Shown: positions 9,488 through 56,294 of the stretch, piece after piece
Layout: each line of letters starts with the position of its first letter
How positions within the stretch are numbered: the stretch's first letter is position 1
NCBI GenBank assembly: GCA_963813535.1
Contig: CAWEZH010000003.1
Location: 672,001 to 736,000 of the forward strand
Source of the DNA: an uncultured Chloroflexia bacterium
GTDB lineage: Bacteria; Chloroflexota; Limnocylindria; Limnocylindrales; CSP1-4
Reading direction: 5' to 3'
DNA length: 64,000 nt
Notes under the pieces: generated by a model
What the model saw: only the letters and a program-made list of their open reading frames with translations
Database searches by the model: none
What the model was told of the DNA's origin: nothing
Translations under genes and position numbers: made by a program

Positions 9488-11316
9488 GCCACCCATCGGC
9501 GCAGCGCGACCGCGGCGGGCGATCCGGCCTCGCCGGGCAGCGGCGGGTCGGCATCGCGCTCGATGCCATCGATGAACGTGATCACGAGGTCTTCGTCGAG
9601 CTGCGTTCCTGCCGCGTCGCCGAGGCGGACGAGAGCCTCGCGCATGTCGAGCGCCTTGCGGTACGGACGCGTCGTCGTCATCGCGGAGAACGCATCGGCG
9701 ACCGCCAGGATCCGCGCGATCTTCGGGATCTCCTCGCCGGCCAGGCGGTCCAGGTAGCCCTGGCCGTCCCAGCGCTCGTGGTGATGACGGATGCCCGCAC
9801 GCACGGCGTCGATGTCGGGCAGGTCGCGGACGATCATGTCGCCAAGGGCGACATGCTGCTGGACGATCGCGTACTCGGCATCCGTCAGGTGCCCGGGCTT
9901 GCGCAGGATCGCGTCCGGGATGCCGATCTTGCCGATGTCATGGAGTCGGCCGGCCAGTTCGATCGTCCGGATCTCCTCGGGCGACAGACCGATCCGACGG
10001 GCGATGAACGTGGCGTAGCGCGCCACATCCTCCGAATGCCGCTTCGTATAGCGGTCCTTGGTGTCGACGGCGATGACGAGACCCTGCAACACGTCGAAGC
10101 TGGTGTTGGCCGCGGGGTCCTCGCCGATGCGGTCGGCGGCATGGCGGACGGTATCGCCACCGCTCGCCTTGGCCTCCTCCAGCATCCGGGCGGCAACGGC
10201 GAGCAGCGCCGTGACCGACGACGCGTGCTCGGGATACGTGGCGAGTCCGACGCTCACGGTGATGGGCAGCCGCTCGGTCTCGTCGAACCGGAGGCTCAGG
10301 TCGACGAGCGCGGTCCGCAGGCGGGTCACGACGGGCTCCAGATGGGTCACGGCCGTCGGATCCGCGACGAGCAGGAACTCGTCGGGTCCGTAGCGACCGA
10401 ACTCCATCCCGGGCTCGATGTGCTCGCGAAGCGTCGCAGCGACCGCCAGGAGCGCCTCGTCTCCGGCGGCATGACCGTGGTTGTCGTTGAGGAGCCGGAA
10501 GTTGTCGATGTCGATGAGGGCGATGCCGATCGGCCGGACCTCCGCACGGCCACGCTCGATCTCCTGGGCGAGATAGCCGACGAGCGCGCCGTGGTTGAGC
10601 GTTTCCGTCAGCGGGTCGCGGTGCGTCGCCTCGAGGAGGGCCTCCGTCTGGCGCGTGAGCCGCGCCTGCGCGGACCGGAACACCAGGAACAGCAACCCCG
10701 CCGCGACGATGCCGGCAGACAGCGTGACGATGACGATCTCGCGCCGCATCGCTTCGAGCCGCTCGACGATCGGCACGCCGTCGCGCCAGATGCCGACCAC
10801 GCCGAGGACCTCGCCATCGACGCTGAGTGGCAGGAACTCGCGCAGCAGTGTCGGCGAGGTGAACGCCCCGGGGCCGGCGCCTGCCTCGCTGGCCGGCCCG
10901 ATGGCCGCCTGCGGCTTTCCGCCCAAGGCCAGACCGAACTCGGCGGTCCCGGGGGCGGCGACGCCGCTCATCCCAGGTTCGCTCGCGGCGACGATCGTCC
11001 CATCGGCGCGGCGAAGCTCCACCCGAAGGATCTCGCCCGCTCGGGGCAACGTGGCGAGCTGCGCCTCGAGCCGCTCGATCTCGGTCGCGGCCGGGGACCG
11101 TATCGAGGAGAGGTCGTCAGGCGTGATGTAGGCGTTGACGAACGAGCGGATCGTCGCCGCGTCGCTCCCGACCAGCCCGGTCAAGGTCGCGGTCGAGAAA
11201 TGGGCTCCTGCCAGGACCGACTGGGCGGTCGCGGCGGCACCCACGATGGCCAGGAAGGCGCCGTAGACCAGGATCAGGAGGACCGGGCGCGGCGGCCGGG
11301 CGCGAGTGCCGAACAA
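9484..11316 (-). CDS. Membrane-bound GGDEF (degenerate GPDEF) plus HD-GYP protein
   Basis: Two TMs; DIDNF..NDNHGHAAGD..RYGPDEF; HDIGK..HHERWDGQGY; start uncertain. Confidence 0.9.
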   Translation of the reverse strand: MFGTRARPPRPVLLILVYGAFLAIVGAAATAQSVLAGAHFSTATLTGLVGSDAATIRSFVNAYITPDDLSSIRSPAATEIERLEAQLATLPRAGEILRVELRRADGTIVAASEPGMSGVAAPGTAEFGLALGGKPQAAIGPASEAGAGPGAFTSPTLLREFLPLSVDGEVLGVVGIWRDGVPIVERLEAMRREIVIVTLSAGIVAAGLLFLVFRSAQARLTRQTEALLEATHRDPLTETLNHGALVGYLAQEIERGRAEVRPIGIALIDIDNFRLLNDNHGHAAGDEALLAVAATLREHIEPGMEFGRYGPDEFLLVADPTAVTHLEPVVTRLRTALVDLSLRFDETERLPITVSVGLATYPEHASSVTALLAVAARMLEEAKASGGDTVRHAADRIGEDPAANTSFDVLQGLVIAVDTKDRYTKRHSEDVARYATFIARRIGLSPEEIRTIELAGRLHDIGKIGIPDAILRKPGHLTDAEYAIVQQHVALGDMIVRDLPDIDAVRAGIRHHHERWDGQGYLDRLAGEEIPKIARILAVADAFSAMTTTRPYRKALDMREALVRLGDAAGTQLDEDLVITFIDGIERDADPPLPGEAGSPAAVALRRWVA

Positions 11317-51204: not shown

Positions 51205-52101
51205 GTGGCCGGGGGACGGCCGTTGACCGATCGACAGGCGCGCGACCTCCCGCTCGATGCGCACCTCCATACCGACCTGTCACCGGACAGCGACGTGCCG
51301 ATCGACGCGTTCGCGGCACAAGCCGTCGAGCGGGGCATCCCCGAGATCGCGATCACCGACCATGTCGACTTCGAGCCCGGCGCGCCGGCGTACCGATTCA
51401 CGACGTTCGAGCAACGCGAGCGGATCGTCCGTGAGGCCGCCGAGCGCTGGGCCGATCGCGGCATCGCGATCCGGTTCGGCGTCGAGTTGACGTACGACCG
51501 CGCATGGGAGGCCGACATCCGCGACCACCTCATGCATCACGCGTATGACTTCACGATCGGGTCGTGGCACGACCGTGTCGGCTCGGTCTACAGCCAGCTG
51601 TCGGTCGCGAGCTGGGTGGCCGGTCGTTCCCTCGCAGAGATCGTCCAGCCGGCGTTCGACGAGGTCGTCGCCGCCGCTCGGTCCCAGCTCTTCGACACGA
51701 TCGGGCACATCGACGTCGTCAAGCGCTATCTCGCGCCGCACGTGACGGCGGACGACCTGGCCGCGGCTCCGGAGCTGTACGAACCGATCCTCGAAGCGCT
51801 CGTCGACAGCGGGACCGCGCTCGAGATCAATACGAGCGGGTTGCGCCAGGAGTCCGGCGAGATGTATCCGCGTCCGGCCATCGTCGCCCGGTACCACGAG
51901 CTCGGCGGCGAGCGCATCACGATCGGCTCGGACGCACATCGAACCCACACATTCGCATGGGCACTCGATGAGGGCTACGCGGCCGCCGTCGCAGCCGGGT
52001 TCGAGACGCTGTCGTTCCGTCGCAAGGGCGGACCGGTCGCCGTTCCGATCGAGCGCTCGGTCGGGTCATCACGTCGTCCGCTACCCTCGGCACATGGCTG
52101 A
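51205..52101 (+). CDS. PHP-family histidinol-phosphatase-like protein
   Basis: DAHLHT, ITDH, GVE, GSWH, GHID, EINTSG, GSDAH. Confidence 0.88.
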   Translation: MAGGRPLTDRQARDLPLDAHLHTDLSPDSDVPIDAFAAQAVERGIPEIAITDHVDFEPGAPAYRFTTFEQRERIVREAAERWADRGIAIRFGVELTYDRAWEADIRDHLMHHAYDFTIGSWHDRVGSVYSQLSVASWVAGRSLAEIVQPAFDEVVAAARSQLFDTIGHIDVVKRYLAPHVTADDLAAAPELYEPILEALVDSGTALEINTSGLRQESGEMYPRPAIVARYHELGGERITIGSDAHRTHTFAWALDEGYAAAVAAGFETLSFRRKGGPVAVPIERSVGSSRRPLPSAHG

Positions 52102-52867
52102 CGGAGGGACCCGACTCGAGGTCGACGTGCTCGGCGCGGGCCCGGCCTACTCGGATCAGGTGGGCTCCGCGGGCGCCTCCTACCTGGTCAGATCCGGCTC
52201 GACGGCCATGGTGCTGGACCTCGGTCAGGGATCGTTCCCTCGCCTCGCGGCGACCATCGAGCCGAGCACCCTCGATGCCGTCGTCATCAGTCACCTCCAC
52301 CCGGACCACTTCGTCGATCTCGTGGCGCTGCGTCACTACCTCCAGTGGCAGTTCCGGCCGGAGCGTCACGTCCGGGTGCTCGCGCCGGGCGGTCTGGAGC
52401 AACGCCTCGACGCGCTCCATGACGAACCGGGGTTCACCGCGGCCACGCTCGACGTCGAGTCGATCGACGCGTCGGTCGGCGGACCGGTCGAGATCGGCGA
52501 CATCCGACTCGAGGCCGTCCGGGTGACCCACACGGATGACAGTCACGCCTTCCGCGTGTCGCTGGCTGATGGGGTGGGGCTCGTCTATTCCGGCGATTGC
52601 GGACGCGCCGACGATCTGGCGCCGCTCATCCGACGCGGGGACGTCCTGCTCTCCGAGGTGTCGTTCGGGCCAGGACCCGTGCCGTACGACGCCCTCCACC
52701 TCGACGGCCCATCGGTCGGGACGCTGGCTGCGCGGACGGGTGTCGCTCGCGTCCTGCTCACGCATCTCCAGATGGGCTACGACCCGGACGCGACGTTGGC
52801 GGCGGTCGCGTCGCGATACGACGGCTCGATCGAGTTCGTCGAGCCGGGCACGCGTCTCGTGATCTAG
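52094..52867 (+). CDS. MBL-fold metallo-hydrolase
   Basis: SHLHPDH, YSGD, LLTH. Confidence 0.9.
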   Translation: MADGGTRLEVDVLGAGPAYSDQVGSAGASYLVRSGSTAMVLDLGQGSFPRLAATIEPSTLDAVVISHLHPDHFVDLVALRHYLQWQFRPERHVRVLAPGGLEQRLDALHDEPGFTAATLDVESIDASVGGPVEIGDIRLEAVRVTHTDDSHAFRVSLADGVGLVYSGDCGRADDLAPLIRRGDVLLSEVSFGPGPVPYDALHLDGPSVGTLAARTGVARVLLTHLQMGYDPDATLAAVASRYDGSIEFVEPGTRLVI

Positions 52868-53058
52868 CCCCCAGTCCCTCCGGACGCCGGGAACGGCCCC
52901 GGACATGGATCGACCGGGCAGCCAGGTGAGTGGCAGACCCGGTCGAGTCGGATTCGAGACGGTGGACGGAGCACCGCACGGACAGCGCGGCGCTCCGTCC
53001 GGGTCTCGGGGACCCCAACTGAAGCTCGAGCGCGGGATGTGATCCCACATTGCCCGAG
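52868..53058 (-). ncRNA. Candidate structured ncRNA
   Basis: Three consecutive long hairpins, G-U pairs favouring the minus strand, upstream promoter-like element. Confidence 0.5.
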
Positions 53059-53164
53059 GCCGCGGATGGTCCCATGGGTCAGGGGTCCACGTCTAGTACT
53101 TTCGACCCCCTCCGGTGCCGTCGGGCACCGCGCCCTCTGGTGACCGATCCCTTCGTGACATGGT

Positions 53165-53196
53165 GACGACCGCCGCCCGATCGGGCGGCGGTCGTC
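53165..53196 (-). terminator. 32-bp perfect palindrome downstream of the surface-protein gene
   Basis: GACGACCGCCGCCCGA|TCGGGCGGCGGTCGTC. Confidence 0.7.
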
Positions 53197-53231
53197 GGGT
53201 GCTCGGACCGGTGCGGCTCGGACGCCCCGGG

Positions 53232-54344
53232 TCAGCGAGCGCTGTCCCCCTTGCGAACCCGAGCTGGCGTCAGCACCAGCGCGGCGGTCAGCAGGCCGGC
53301 CATCCCGAGGAGGATGAGCCGCCAGGGGTCACCAGCGGGCGCCGAGGAGGCGACGCCCGTGGTGTCGGTGGCCGGCAGGGTTGCCCTCGAGGTCGCGGCC
53401 GGTGTACCGGTCGCTGGCCCGACGCCCCCCGTCGGCTCTTCTGCGGGGCTGTTGTTGACGATGACGATGGTGAGGCTGAGCTCCTGCTCGCCCTCGTTGG
53501 GCATGCACTCGACGAGCCCGCTCACATCCCAGATGCAGGTGAGCGACGGATCGACGTTCAGCTCGACGAGGATCGGCTCGCTGCCGTCGAAGCCAGCAGG
53601 CACGGTCGACTCGACGATCCAGTACATGCCCTCATCGAGCAGGTCCGTGTCGAGCAGGCCGCCGGTGGCCGCCGCGGGTCCGAACACCTTGGTGTCCGCG
53701 CCGGACTCGAAGACCTCGTCTCCATCGTCGGCCCAGACCTCGAACGACGCTCCGTCGAGGAGCACGTCGTCGGCCTCGGTCGCGGTTCCCTTGTCATCGA
53801 GCTTCGCGATCAGGATGCTCGCCTGATCGGTCTCCTCGGACGGCGGGGGCGTGGGCGTCGGGACGGGCGTGGGGGTCGGGGTCGGGACAGGTGTCGGGGT
53901 CGGCGTCGGGACAGGTGTCGGCGTAGGCGTCGGCACCGGTGTCGGCGTGGGCGTGGGCTGCACGCAGGCGCCGATCTGGAGCTCGAACTCCCTGGTCCAC
54001 CCGCGGTTGCCCGTCGGGTCGTCCCAGGCGGTGATCTCGACCGTCGCCGTGTGCGCCTGCGTCGCCGGCGTCACCGCGATGGTCTTCGAGAACGACGCAC
54101 CGAACGAGAACGGCGAACCCGCCACATCGACGTCGTCGATCGACACGTCGACCGAGTTCGTGCCATTGCTGTTGTACTGGGTGAGGTTGATGACCAGTCC
54201 GCCCTGGCAGGTGAGTGACACGTTGGGCGTGTGCGCCGAGACGGCCGTGGGCGCCAGGAGCGCGACGGCGGTCAGCGCGGCGACGGCCAGCCACGACACA
54301 CGTCGGGCCAGGCGCGAGCGGACACGCGCAGGAGCTGATGTCAT
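53232..54344 (-). CDS. Secreted Pro/Thr-rich surface protein with a prealbumin/SpaA-like domain and LPATD-TM-basic tail
   Basis: Signal peptide; PTPTPV repeats; IAKLD..LDGASFEV..GMYWIVESTVPAGF; TLPATDT..TM..RVRK. Confidence 0.8.
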   Translation of the reverse strand: MTSAPARVRSRLARRVSWLAVAALTAVALLAPTAVSAHTPNVSLTCQGGLVINLTQYNSNGTNSVDVSIDDVDVAGSPFSFGASFSKTIAVTPATQAHTATVEITAWDDPTGNRGWTREFELQIGACVQPTPTPTPVPTPTPTPVPTPTPTPVPTPTPTPVPTPTPPPSEETDQASILIAKLDDKGTATEADDVLLDGASFEVWADDGDEVFESGADTKVFGPAAATGGLLDTDLLDEGMYWIVESTVPAGFDGSEPILVELNVDPSLTCIWDVSGLVECMPNEGEQELSLTIVIVNNSPAEEPTGGVGPATGTPAATSRATLPATDTTGVASSAPAGDPWRLILLGMAGLLTAALVLTPARVRKGDSAR

Positions 54345-54610
54345 GTGACGGTTCCCCGAGCAGAGGCCGGAGCCTCGGTTGGATGGATCTCGCGTCGGTG
54401 GCTTCCCCCGGTGGTGTCCGTGCACCGGCGCGAGAGGCCGGATATTCCCATGAGGGTCCTGGCCGGTCTAGTACCTCTGGCGGCCGACCACCACACCAGT
54501 CCCTCCCCCACCGCCCAGGGGACGGCGAATTCGTTGCTGCCCAGCAACGAACGGTCCTGCCGGCGGCCTGGTACCTCCGGTGTCCGACCGACCCAAGTAC
54601 GATGCAGCGC

Positions 54611-56294
54611 GTGATCCCACCCGCGCTCCGCACCCAGATCCGCCGCGCCGTCCAGGACGCCTGGGAGCGCGCGATCGCGGAGGGTGCGCTCTCGACCCTC
54701 GATGACGCAGCACGTCCCGTCGTGGAGGTCGAACGACCGGCCAAACCGGAGCACGGGGACTTCGCGACGAACCTGGCGATGAAGCTCGCCCGACCGTACA
54801 GACGGGCGCCGCTCGAGCTCGCCACGTTGCTGGCGGCCAAGATGGTCCGAGACGGCTCCGCGCCGGCGGCGACGTCGCCGGTCGAAGCGGTCGAGGTCGC
54901 CCCGCCCGGCTTTCTCAACGTCCGCGTGCGCGCCGGGGCGCTCGAGGCCATGGTCGACGGCATCCTTGCCGAGCCCGATGCGTGGGGACACGTGGATGCG
55001 CTCTCGACGCGGTCGGTCAACGTCGAGTTCGTATCGGCCAACCCGACCGGGCCGCTGACCATCGGCAATGCCCGAGGCGCGTTCATCGGCGATCTGCTCA
55101 GCCGTGTGCTCGAGGCGGGCGGCCAGCGTGTGACGCGCGAGTACTACTTCAACGACTCAGGCGCGCAGATCGACAACCTCGGTGCGTCTGTCGTCGCCAT
55201 CCGGCGAGGCGATCCGATCCCGGAGGAGGGCTACCAGGGCGCGTATGTCAGCGACCTCGCCGCCGAGCGTGCCGGACGATGTGTGGGCTGCGGCCAACGC
55301 GTCGGGCGCCGATCCGGCAGCGGAGATCGGGCACTGGGCCGCGGGCGAGATCCGCGCCCAGATCGAAGCGAGCCTGGAACGGCTCGGTGTCCATTTCGAT
55401 GTCTGGACGAGCGAGGGCCGCTTGCACGCCGAGGGCTGGGTCGGGCGCGCCGTCGAGCGACTCCGCGAGCGTGGCCACGTCTACGAAGAGGACGAGGCGA
55501 CGTGGTTCCGATCGACCGCATTCGGGGACGACAAGGATCGGGTCATCTACCGGGCTGATGGCCGTCCGACCTACTTCGCGGCCGACATCGGCTACGTCAC
55601 CGAGAAGTTCAGCCGCGGGTTCGACCACCTCATCTACGTCTGGGGGGCGGATCACCACGGGACGGTCGCGCGGGTCCGCAATGCGGCCGAGGCGATGGGC
55701 TACGACCCCGCGGCTGTGCAGGTGCTTCTCTATTCATGGGTCCGCTTCGTGCGCGACGGCGTCGAGGTGTCGATGTCGAAGCGGGCGGGGGAGTTCATCA
55801 CCCTCGACGAACTGCTGGCCGAGGTCGGGGTCGACGCCGCTCGCTGGTTCTTCGCCTCACGCGCAGCCACGACAGCCATCGATTTCGACATCGAGCTTGC
55901 CAAGAAGCAGTCGAACGAGAACCCGGTCTTCTACGTGCAGTACGCACACGCCCGCATCGCATCGATCCTGCGCAAGGCCGCGGACGCCGGCCTGACGCCG
56001 GCCACGACCGTCGCCGGCACGCTGTCGACCGGGCCCGAGGCCGCCCTGGCGCGGGCCATCGTGCGTCTGCCCGAGGTCATCGAGGACGCCGTCGCCGACG
56101 AGGAGACCCACGGCATCACGGCCTACGCGACCGAGCTCGCGACGGCGTTCCATGCCTTCTACCGCGATGCCCGCGTCGTCGACCCGGACAACCCGGAGCG
56201 GTCGGCATCGCGCCTCGCACTCGCGCGTGCCGCACAGCTCACGCTCGCGCGCACGCTCGGGCTCCTCGGGATCTCGGCGCCCGAGTCGATGTGA
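54611..56294 (+). CDS. argS: Arginyl-tRNA synthetase (frameshift near 55265)
   Basis: HGDFATN, EFVSANPTGPL.IG, GDDKDRV, GADHHG, MSKRAG, YVQYAHAR. Confidence 0.95.

Follow-up and report, generated by a model that had tools for sequence, protein, structure and literature searches.

The 64,000-nt stretch analyzed here (the window: positions 672,001 to 736,000 of contig CAWEZH010000003.1, assembly GCA_963813535.1, from an uncultured Chloroflexia bacterium) holds, in the gap between a surface-protein gene and a convergent gene for a metallo-beta-lactamase (MBL)-fold protein, an RNA structure on the minus strand that is, in our judgment, almost certainly real, conserved, and strand-specific. In relatives of the host genome (G000: 3.28 Mb, 3 contigs, 70% GC), which form a genus-level lineage of uncultured Chloroflexota from soil, the conserved part of this structure closes arrays of surface-protein genes, and the form present in the window very probably derives from the 3'UTR (untranslated region) module of a lost gene of such an array. 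Because the most conserved stretch of the RNA matches the ribosome-landing sites of the surface-protein genes, translational control is a probable role; from these sequence comparisons, we give an even chance to the more specific proposal of an icaR/IcaZ-like 3'-end riboregulator that now exists as a free-standing small RNA (sRNA) gene of ~165 nt.

A conserved hairpin on the minus strand

Three hairpins follow one another along the minus strand. We use "core" for the inner helix of hairpin 2 plus its 5' flank and "element" for the conserved module built on this core, which runs from an unpaired GGGGUCCCCGAGACCC (the proposed seed) through a 16-bp covarying hairpin topped by GCUGUCCGUG to a variable, terminator-like hairpin. 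The 233-nt stretch that contains all three hairpins has a folding energy of -135.3 kcal/mol as the minus strand (z -5.36), a value equaled by 0/200 shuffles, and of -122.3 kcal/mol as the plus strand (z -2.82), equaled by 2/200. For the 163 nt between the predicted start and the end of hairpin 3 (53060-52898), the corresponding energies are -97.8 kcal/mol (z -6.59) and -85.5 kcal/mol (z -4.05). A preliminary description of this DNA had proposed three minus-strand hairpins, and these are present where it placed them, on the strand that folds better, as is its perfect 32-bp palindrome at 53165-53196. Its closing helix (CTTCAGTT/GACTGGGG) has to be given up: the 3' arm is absent from both G060 and G024, a 96%-identical relative. 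Of the structure as a whole, hairpin 2 is widely conserved, whereas the outer stem of hairpin 1 (CUCGGGC/GCUCGAG) is retained in G000, G024, and G060 only, around a variable interior. As far as sequence comparison reaches, wide conservation is limited to hairpin 2 and its 5' flank, and hairpin 3 is variable and terminator-like.

Covariation was counted over 70 distinct sequences. The 16-bp helix is paired in 98.2% of cells, is changed on both sides in 7 pairs (113 cells), and reaches a covariation score of 0.261, versus 0.129 in shuffles (0/500 reach the observed value) and at most 0.089 for slid partners. Conservation reaches at least 97% in two blocks, GGGGUCCCCGAGACCCGG.CGG and the hairpin top GC.GUCCGUG. 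G-U pairs number 159, or 89 once one invariant pair is set aside, as opposed to 14 A-C cells (G-U if read from the opposite strand). This identifies the minus strand of the window, which has the same sense as the surface-protein genes, as the one that folds. A possible outer helix, CGAGAC/GUCUCG, is paired in 89.4% of cells in the genus, but it has 0 pairs with compensatory change and is not retained in other genera, for which reasons we regard it as doubtful.

Searches against Rfam 15 returned 4 weak matches for window positions 52000-55000 at E <= 10, none of them within 52868-53100, and 0 matches at E <= 1 for the whole G006 and G094 loci; ARAGORN found 0 tRNA or tmRNA genes. A coding reading (a 105-amino-acid open reading frame [ORF] at 52758..53075, minus strand) was rejected, given that the frame carries 10-nt and 1-nt gaps in G060 and that the stem variation is compensatory. 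A repeat or mobile element was likewise rejected: the element is single-copy in G000, where the next-best match spans 19 nt (E 0.015).

Among 40 relatives sampled by BLAST, the whole stretch was found in G024 (96% identity) and its middle part alone in G006, G021, G007, and G011. A covariance model built from five sequences matched 38 of the 131 genomes of the genus at 58 to 102 bits and 49 of them at E <= 0.01 (many of the assemblies being incomplete). Across the class, weaker copies (29 to 43 bits) occur in 10 of 36 genomes from the family's other genera, a second family gave 1 doubtful match in 49 genomes, and there was none in the 56 genomes of two further families. In the other genera, the array consists of a single giant gene, and the element retains its lower stem and its seed, as GGGUCCCCGAGACCC, with a loop that reads nGCCUGA. 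A pattern scan of metagenomes returned 60 loci, 48 of which contain the element, and an exact pattern scan (one genome per species) found carriers labeled "Candidatus Limnocylindrales," "uncultured Chloroflexia," and "Chloroflexota" among metagenome-assembled genomes (MAGs). Five of 43 pattern-matched loci lay outside the Chloroflexota and were set aside as chance matches (<= 16.4 bits). Two labels deserve comment: loci L114 and L045 (G053) are one contig with an element of 71.8 bits, so that its "Patescibacteria group" label looks wrong, and the G011 locus occurs twice in near-identical form (L012 on C3 and L019 on C2) in a MAG that is 59% complete, indicating either duplication or redundant assembly.

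Surface-protein gene arrays and the loss of a coding sequence

In relatives, the element occupies the 3'UTR position of a surface-protein mRNA and is followed by hairpin 3; in G000, the coding sequence is gone. For 31 of 40 copies, the core begins 6 to 65 nt (mostly 15 to 17 nt) past the stop codon of a gene whose product terminates in TLP[SAP]T[DS] followed by a membrane segment and a basic tail. Copies lacking a usable stop distance include two at contig ends, one whose ORF is mis-called (G127), and one read at ~74 nt (G011). The arrays themselves start from a divergent argS and proceed through an A-type gene (~370 to 450 amino acids), then B-type gene(s) (225 to 311 amino acids) and/or a giant C-type gene (>1,600 amino acids), to the element. 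The number and type of the genes vary (1 to 3 per array), and G094 and G124 contain a tandem pair of gene-plus-element units. Downstream, a convergent ORF with a C-terminal sequence close to that of the G000 MBL-fold protein is present in 36 of 38 loci (the Pfam scan of these ORFs covered G000 and G006 only), and its stop lies 57 to 250 nt from the core.

The array genes end in TLP[SAP]T[DS] or PPTD, followed by a hydrophobic segment and a basic tail, and thereby have the look of sortase signals in which D or S replaces G (e.g., L010, 549-1484). No Pfam or NCBIfam sorting-signal model matched them (what was returned were low-complexity matches and one SpaA domain), and "sortase-type" is a resemblance only. 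As for the MBL-fold protein, the top-scoring NCBIfam model is one for a cyclic-nucleotide phosphodiesterase, and its score falls below the cut-off. The possibility that this neighbor is an RNase was discarded, its RNase Z and phosphodiesterase matches being subthreshold only, and we claim no link between it and the RNA.

The origin of the solitary form is seen by comparison with G006 and G021, in which a complete B-type gene lies between the window's orphan motif and the core, the latter 16 nt past the stop codon; G094, G124, and other relatives also have a B-type gene between the two parts. A blastn map places the ~0.8- to 1-kb gene of G006 and G021 between ~53054 and ~53016-53037, where G000 has none. 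From the gene-bearing layout and this map, it follows that the apparent noncoding RNA of the window consists of a B-type promoter-like motif and the 5'-arm region of the first leader hairpin, joined to the 3' module of a B-type gene. We infer that the B-type coding sequence was deleted in G000, G024, and G060. G000 and G060 are no closer to one another (73.9% identity in the MBL protein and 75.1% in the A-type protein) than G000 is to gene-bearing genomes; they are nevertheless identical at 45 of 49 nt of the orphan promoter-like motif, versus 25 to 55% in the adjoining upstream spacer, and have in common a derived hairpin-1 arm, GCUCGAGCU. Because the junction is common to the orphans, the sequences argue for a single deletion. 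Logan contigs from two soil/permafrost studies bridge motif and core without an insertion (X2, 52902-53239; X3, 52993-53169) and display 6 differences in 339 nt, versus 13 in 155 nt of the MBL coding sequence (depth <5, contigs only). Within the element, these differences are confined to the interior of hairpin 1 (53033 and 53051) and a deleted base after hairpin 3 (52897).

The promoter-like motif, P2, reads GTACTAGAC..CATGGGACCATCC on the minus strand (53099-53064) and comprises GTACTAGAC (53099-53091), a -35-like TAGACG (53095-53090), an 18-nt spacer, and TGG plus a -10-like GACCAT (53071-53066), with the predicted start of the RNA at about 53060-53058. By hand count against the sigma-70 consensus, TAGACG agrees with the -35 hexamer at 4/6 positions and GACCAT with the -10 hexamer at 3/6. 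The full form, GTACTAGAC..CATGGGA..ATCC, has 2 copies in the 3.28-Mb genome, this one and one that precedes the LPATD gene (the A-type surface-protein gene of the window), which bears out the proposed resemblance to the promoter of that gene, and the same motif occurs ~125 nt upstream of surface-protein start codons in all relatives read. The balance of this evidence tips toward independent transcription from the retained motif. The proposal of a noncoding RNA gene survives in modified form, in that a conserved, strand-specific structured RNA has kept a promoter-like motif in the absence of a coding sequence, but it is not a free-standing invention.

Two features of the motif may be added. The 9-mer GTACTAGAC has 5 sites in the genome (C1:160165[+], C2:123472[+], C2:316436[+], and two in the window) and may represent a strong lineage-specific -35 or upstream promoter element. 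In addition, the B-type motif includes a direct repeat, GGACCAT-G-GGACCAT, that overlaps the -10 region (53066-53087, minus strand) and could be a regulator site common to the array genes.

Initiation regions and the proposed function

The seed is at least 97% conserved, and A-, B-, and C-type genes alike contain a 10- to 12-nt complement to it in their initiation regions. A-type ribosome-binding sites read CUCGGGGACC(C), a 10- to 12-nt complement, and G000 and G024 have instead CUCGGGGAACC (54360-54350 in G000), which is complementary to the seed save for one bulged A. B-type sites (CUUGGGGACC) form 9 Watson-Crick pairs and 1 G-U pair with the seed, and the C-type site, AUG-UCUCGGGGAC, provides 11 nt in 4/4 genomes; B- and C-type genes thus have a seed complement at their start and the element in their own 3'UTR. 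Within 122.7 kb from 12 loci, 11 of the 15 seed matches of at least 10 nt fall in initiation regions. Cognate duplexes range from -18.5 to -26.6 kcal/mol, versus -14.7 +/- 3.8 kcal/mol in 487 control windows, and few GGGGACC ribosome-binding sites exist in G000 (8 candidates, of which ~2 are convincing genes).

The giant genes of the other genera extend this pattern. Two of their starts were readable (G173 and G213; the other four were out of reach), and both have a complement: GUCUCGGGGA in G173 (10 nt, at +5) and, in G213, GGUCUCGGGGA (11 nt, at -34) and GGUCUCGGGG (10 nt, at +7). Giant genes spell the site UCU-CGG-GGA, with GGU in the second site of G213, and in G000, UCU accounts for 2.4% of Ser codons and GGA for 8.8% of Gly codons (from 300 crude gene calls, applied to relatives by approximation). 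That rare codons are kept at the site points to a nucleotide-level constraint. Giant genes (1,550 to 2,020 amino acids) begin M-(K)-S-R-G and have a second in-frame AUG 8 to 9 codons on, such that their first codons look RNA-constrained; the starts in question are located at ~14.1 to 14.9 kb in L191/L192/L193/L190 (G106, G130, G103, and G099), at 10822 in L204, and at 11197 and 11231 in L206.

A second complementarity involves the leader of A-type genes, whose sole fully invariant block is ACGGAC (mostly YACGGACR). This block resides in the large loop of a covarying leader hairpin (9 of its 16 predicted pairs show compensatory change) and is complementary to the element's UGUCCGUG; in G000, it appears as CACGGACA at 54422-54415, in the loop of the P1 hairpin. 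ACGGAC is present in 16/16 identifiable first-gene leaders and in 0/16 leaders classed as B-type by protein N-terminus, a split that also left three ACGGAC-less leaders in the A class (two later-position genes and one mis-called start). Our first extraction of leaders was selected by motif, so the ACGGAC count is taken from unfiltered listings.

The A-type leader (window 54345-54440, minus strand; 12 relatives, alignment A5) is a conserved structured RNA itself. It consists of the covarying hairpin with a ~21- to 26-nt loop (ACGGAC and a GGGGG run), a GAGGC/GCCUC hairpin, and the unusual ribosome-binding site CUCGGGGACC, and it has no Rfam match.

From these features, a mechanism can be proposed. 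Once the B-type coding sequence was deleted, the promoter-like motif and first leader hairpin would have been joined to the 3' module, and a minus-strand RNA of ~165 nt would run from ~53060 to ~52900, with GGGGUCCCCGAG taken as unpaired. Its C-rich stretch would pair with the initiation regions of array mRNAs and block ribosome loading. In G000, the sole candidate target is the LPATD gene at 54360-54350, hence an action in trans, with seed segment UCCCCGAG pairing to target segment CUCGGGGA; a second contact, between the loop UGUCCGUG and the A-type leader loop, may help. As a 3'UTR, the module could act in cis or in trans, and when orphaned, it would act in trans. The chances that the RNA operates by masking initiation regions seem to us evenly poised, and we infer that the RNA is transcribed, where it begins and ends, that it pairs in the cell, and in which direction it regulates. 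Only tentatively do we extend the proposal to a family-wide, undescribed Chloroflexota riboregulator that closes every surface-protein array, pairs via seed and kissing loop, and here is becoming an independent sRNA gene through deletion of its host coding sequence with the promoter retained.

Several results weigh against this riboregulator proposal. No RNA run holding the locus (window 51500-55500) is listed, and a consensus scanner run over 52500-54700 reported neither a sigma-70-like promoter nor an intrinsic terminator, so that the label "promoter" owes itself to conservation and position only. The orphan state is rare, being found in 3 of 38 genomes and in 0 of 45 metagenome loci with a core-pattern match (700-nt flanks), and the MBL-protein tree (which leaves out G011 and in which G075 has no ORF) has unresolved deep nodes, requires 1 to 2 changes for the orphans, and leaves their status as a clade undecided. 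The duplex of G000 itself, at -20.2 kcal/mol (8+2 bp, extra A), is equaled by 7.6% of the 487 controls, whose "genes" are crude ORF calls; the loop-loop contact (-13.3 kcal/mol) is equaled by 16.6% of controls, and the sum of seed and loop sites (-33.5 kcal/mol) by 4.9%. Seed-type matches of at least 10 nt are common in the GC-rich G000 (187 with a 20-nt target, both strands), and G055 and G123 have imperfect ribosome-binding sites with no compensating change in the element. Finally, the alignment was fitted to the covariance model and its sequences are kin rather than independent, and over the whole structure, pairs changed on both sides number 7, versus 5.8 in shuffles (103/500 reach this), and further pair types number 23, versus 23.1 (336/500 reach this).

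The strongest alternative, which we nonetheless consider unlikely, is that the locus is a passive scar, composed of a dead promoter and ordinary terminator or 3'-protecting hairpins, whose conservation has no cause beyond the requirement for a stem of high stability at the 3' end and a recently shared ancestry. It accommodates the location of the element, 3'-terminal in the array and flanked by convergent genes, its high stability, the rarity of the orphan form, the lack of any listed RNA run, and the U-rich run that follows the core, with no third hairpin, in G055, G062, and G064. Terminators, however, normally have no invariant loop, lower stem, and 16-nt flank across 70 sequences and several genera. 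Moreover, hairpin 3 is a distinct structure in most species, and the 12 nt after the core contain only 2.4 T on average (38 element copies); the tail of hairpin 3 is U-rich in G006 and G011 but not in G000, where the scanner recognizes no canonical intrinsic terminator in the core plus hairpin 3. Also unaccounted for are the retention of rare codons at the complementary site and the near-identity of the orphan motif, relative to its spacer, at ~25% protein divergence.

Somewhat less probable still is a protein-binding module, in which an RNA-binding protein or RNase would dock on flank, lower stem, and loop (with possible roles in RNase III-type processing, mRNA stabilization, or membrane targeting) and pairing to initiation regions would be incidental. 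Invariance within the helix (GGRCGGRRCG/CGYYCCGYCC) and loop does exceed what pairing needs, double-strand RNases accept helices of the size of the perfect 16-bp helix, and the element is invariably linked to secreted or anchored proteins. Yet no gene for a partner protein co-travels with the element, its neighbors being argS, his-type genes, and the MBL hydrolase; other genera retain the seed but have nGCCUGA as the loop; and the 10- to 12-nt complements at the initiation regions of three gene classes, with their rare codons, go unexplained.

We attach very little probability to a DNA-level element, i.e., an operator, recombination site, or cassette boundary that ends a variable surface-gene array and might operate through the GGGGTCCCC near-palindrome and through GGACC repeats also found in the promoter-like motif: the array in front does vary (1 to 3 genes), and the GGACCAT-G-GGACCAT of the motif has its complement, GGTCC, in the core, but the excess of G-U over A-C (89 versus 14) denotes selection on one folded strand, compensatory stem changes are needless for a duplex-DNA site, and the element is single-copy. 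Equally improbable is a service to the convergent MBL gene, as an antisense RNA to its 3' end or as insulation of convergent units; the MBL-type ORF is a constant and close neighbor, and overlapping 3'UTRs are a known regulatory layout (PMC7821165), but hairpin 3 lies downstream of the conserved parts, the sequence by the MBL stop is unconserved even between G000 and G024, and the seed fits surface-gene starts, with no match to the MBL gene listed in the genome scan (no scan dedicated to it was made).

The features of the locus are collected in Table 1. The A-type protein combines a signal peptide, a Pro/Thr linker, a SpaA-like domain, and a C-terminal TLPATD followed by a membrane segment and basic tail, and a palindrome of comparable kind occupies the same position in G024, G060, and G006. 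A second UGUCCG-like word (AUGUCCGG or CUGUCCGG) is situated 3' of hairpin 3 (52898-52909, minus strand), where it repeats the core-loop sequence, and is found in the same place in G060, G094, and G124.

Table 1. Features of the locus, in window coordinates
Feature	Position	Strand	Basis
MBL-fold hydrolase gene, convergent, constant neighbor	51968..52867	+	Pfam Lactamase_B_2
Variable-top hairpin 3 (GACCGGG..CCCGGUC), likely terminator between convergent genes	52910..52946	-	Strong post-core hairpin in most relatives
GUCUCG, 3' arm of possible outer helix with CGAGAC (53008-53003)	52955..52960	-	Doubtful
Core hairpin: 16-bp helix, invariant apical GCUGUCCGUG	52964..53000	-	Covariation; arms 53000-52985 with 52979-52964
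Invariant stretch GGGGUCCCCGAGACCC, 16 nt, proposed seed (anti-ribosome-binding-site)	53001..53016	-	Conservation, complementarity
Hairpin 1, probable remnant of the lost B-type gene's first leader hairpin (P1)	53025..53058	-	Comparison with relatives
Promoter-like motif P2	53058..53099	-	Sequence, conservation, position
Perfect palindrome, 32 bp, terminator-like, 3' of LPATD gene	53165..53196	.	Sequence
A-type surface-protein (LPATD) gene, 370 amino acids, proposed target	53232..54344	-	Protein features
Promoter P1 (putative) and structured leader of A-type gene	54345..54474	-	Conservation, alignment

Relation to known regulatory RNAs

Post-transcriptional control in the Chloroflexota is essentially uncharted: a full-text literature search for "Limnocylindr*" with "structured RNA" found nothing in print, and a broader search likewise returned nothing with Limnocylindria. 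If the riboregulator proposal is correct, the element would constitute a new RNA family with clear covariation; the icaR/IcaZ logic of masking a ribosome-binding site by a 3'UTR or a neighboring sRNA would reach a distant phylum and the surface proteins of abundant soil bacteria; and the gene with its 3'UTR element, the tandem copies, and the promoter-bearing orphan would form a natural series for the birth of sRNAs from 3'UTRs. On the tentative family-wide reading, the locus would document a route by which a trans-acting sRNA can arise from a 3'UTR. Because both partners are short and invariant, the predictions are directly testable by compensatory mutations.

Intrinsic terminators are one close comparison. 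They, too, are GC-rich hairpins that end a transcription unit between convergent genes, and hairpin 3 is probably one of them; the core differs in that its loop, lower stem, and 5' flank are invariant, usually with no U-tract.

By sequence, the element shares no similarity or family with icaR, IcaZ, or 3'UTR-derived sRNAs, and its membership among sRNAs is a prediction. What it has in common with them is layout. Among 3'UTR-derived sRNAs, as set out in PMC7821165, type I members have their own promoter and type II members are processed, and OppZ and CarZ repress their parent operon. Like these, the element has a conserved seed just upstream of 3' hairpins, possibly autoregulates its parent operon, and would fall with type I by its promoter-like motif. 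The known examples are mostly Hfq/RNase E-dependent and proteobacterial, whereas the promoter-like motif here comes from a deleted gene, rather than from within a coding sequence, in an uncultured organism. IcaZ of Staphylococcus epidermidis, whose gene directly follows icaR and whose target is the icaR 5'UTR (PMC7821165), provides the parallel of the same contact being made either by a 3'UTR or by a separate downstream sRNA gene, as in G006 and G021 versus G000, G024, and G060. The stand-alone form in our case appears to have been derived by loss of a coding sequence with the promoter-like motif kept, and IcaZ is not so described in the passages of that source consulted here.

Another close parallel is the icaR 3'UTR of Staphylococcus aureus, whose UCCCCUG motif pairs with the Shine-Dalgarno region of its own mRNA (PMC3868564). 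There, as here, a C-rich, UCCCC-containing 3'UTR motif is set against the ribosome-binding site of its own mRNA, a surface or matrix gene is involved, and a block of initiation is proposed. The two have no relation in sequence or structure and belong to different phyla, and in the Chloroflexota, the motif stands directly 5' of a conserved, covarying hairpin, several array genes are matched at Shine-Dalgarno or start-codon positions, the G000 motif has no preceding coding sequence, and both pairing and effect are predicted from sequence. In relatives, the element combines sequence hallmarks of both groups: a 3'UTR location and a conserved seed complementary to its targets, as in 3'UTR-derived sRNAs, and, for B- and C-type genes, a C-rich anti-Shine-Dalgarno motif in the 3'UTR that complements the ribosome-binding site of the same mRNA, as in icaR.

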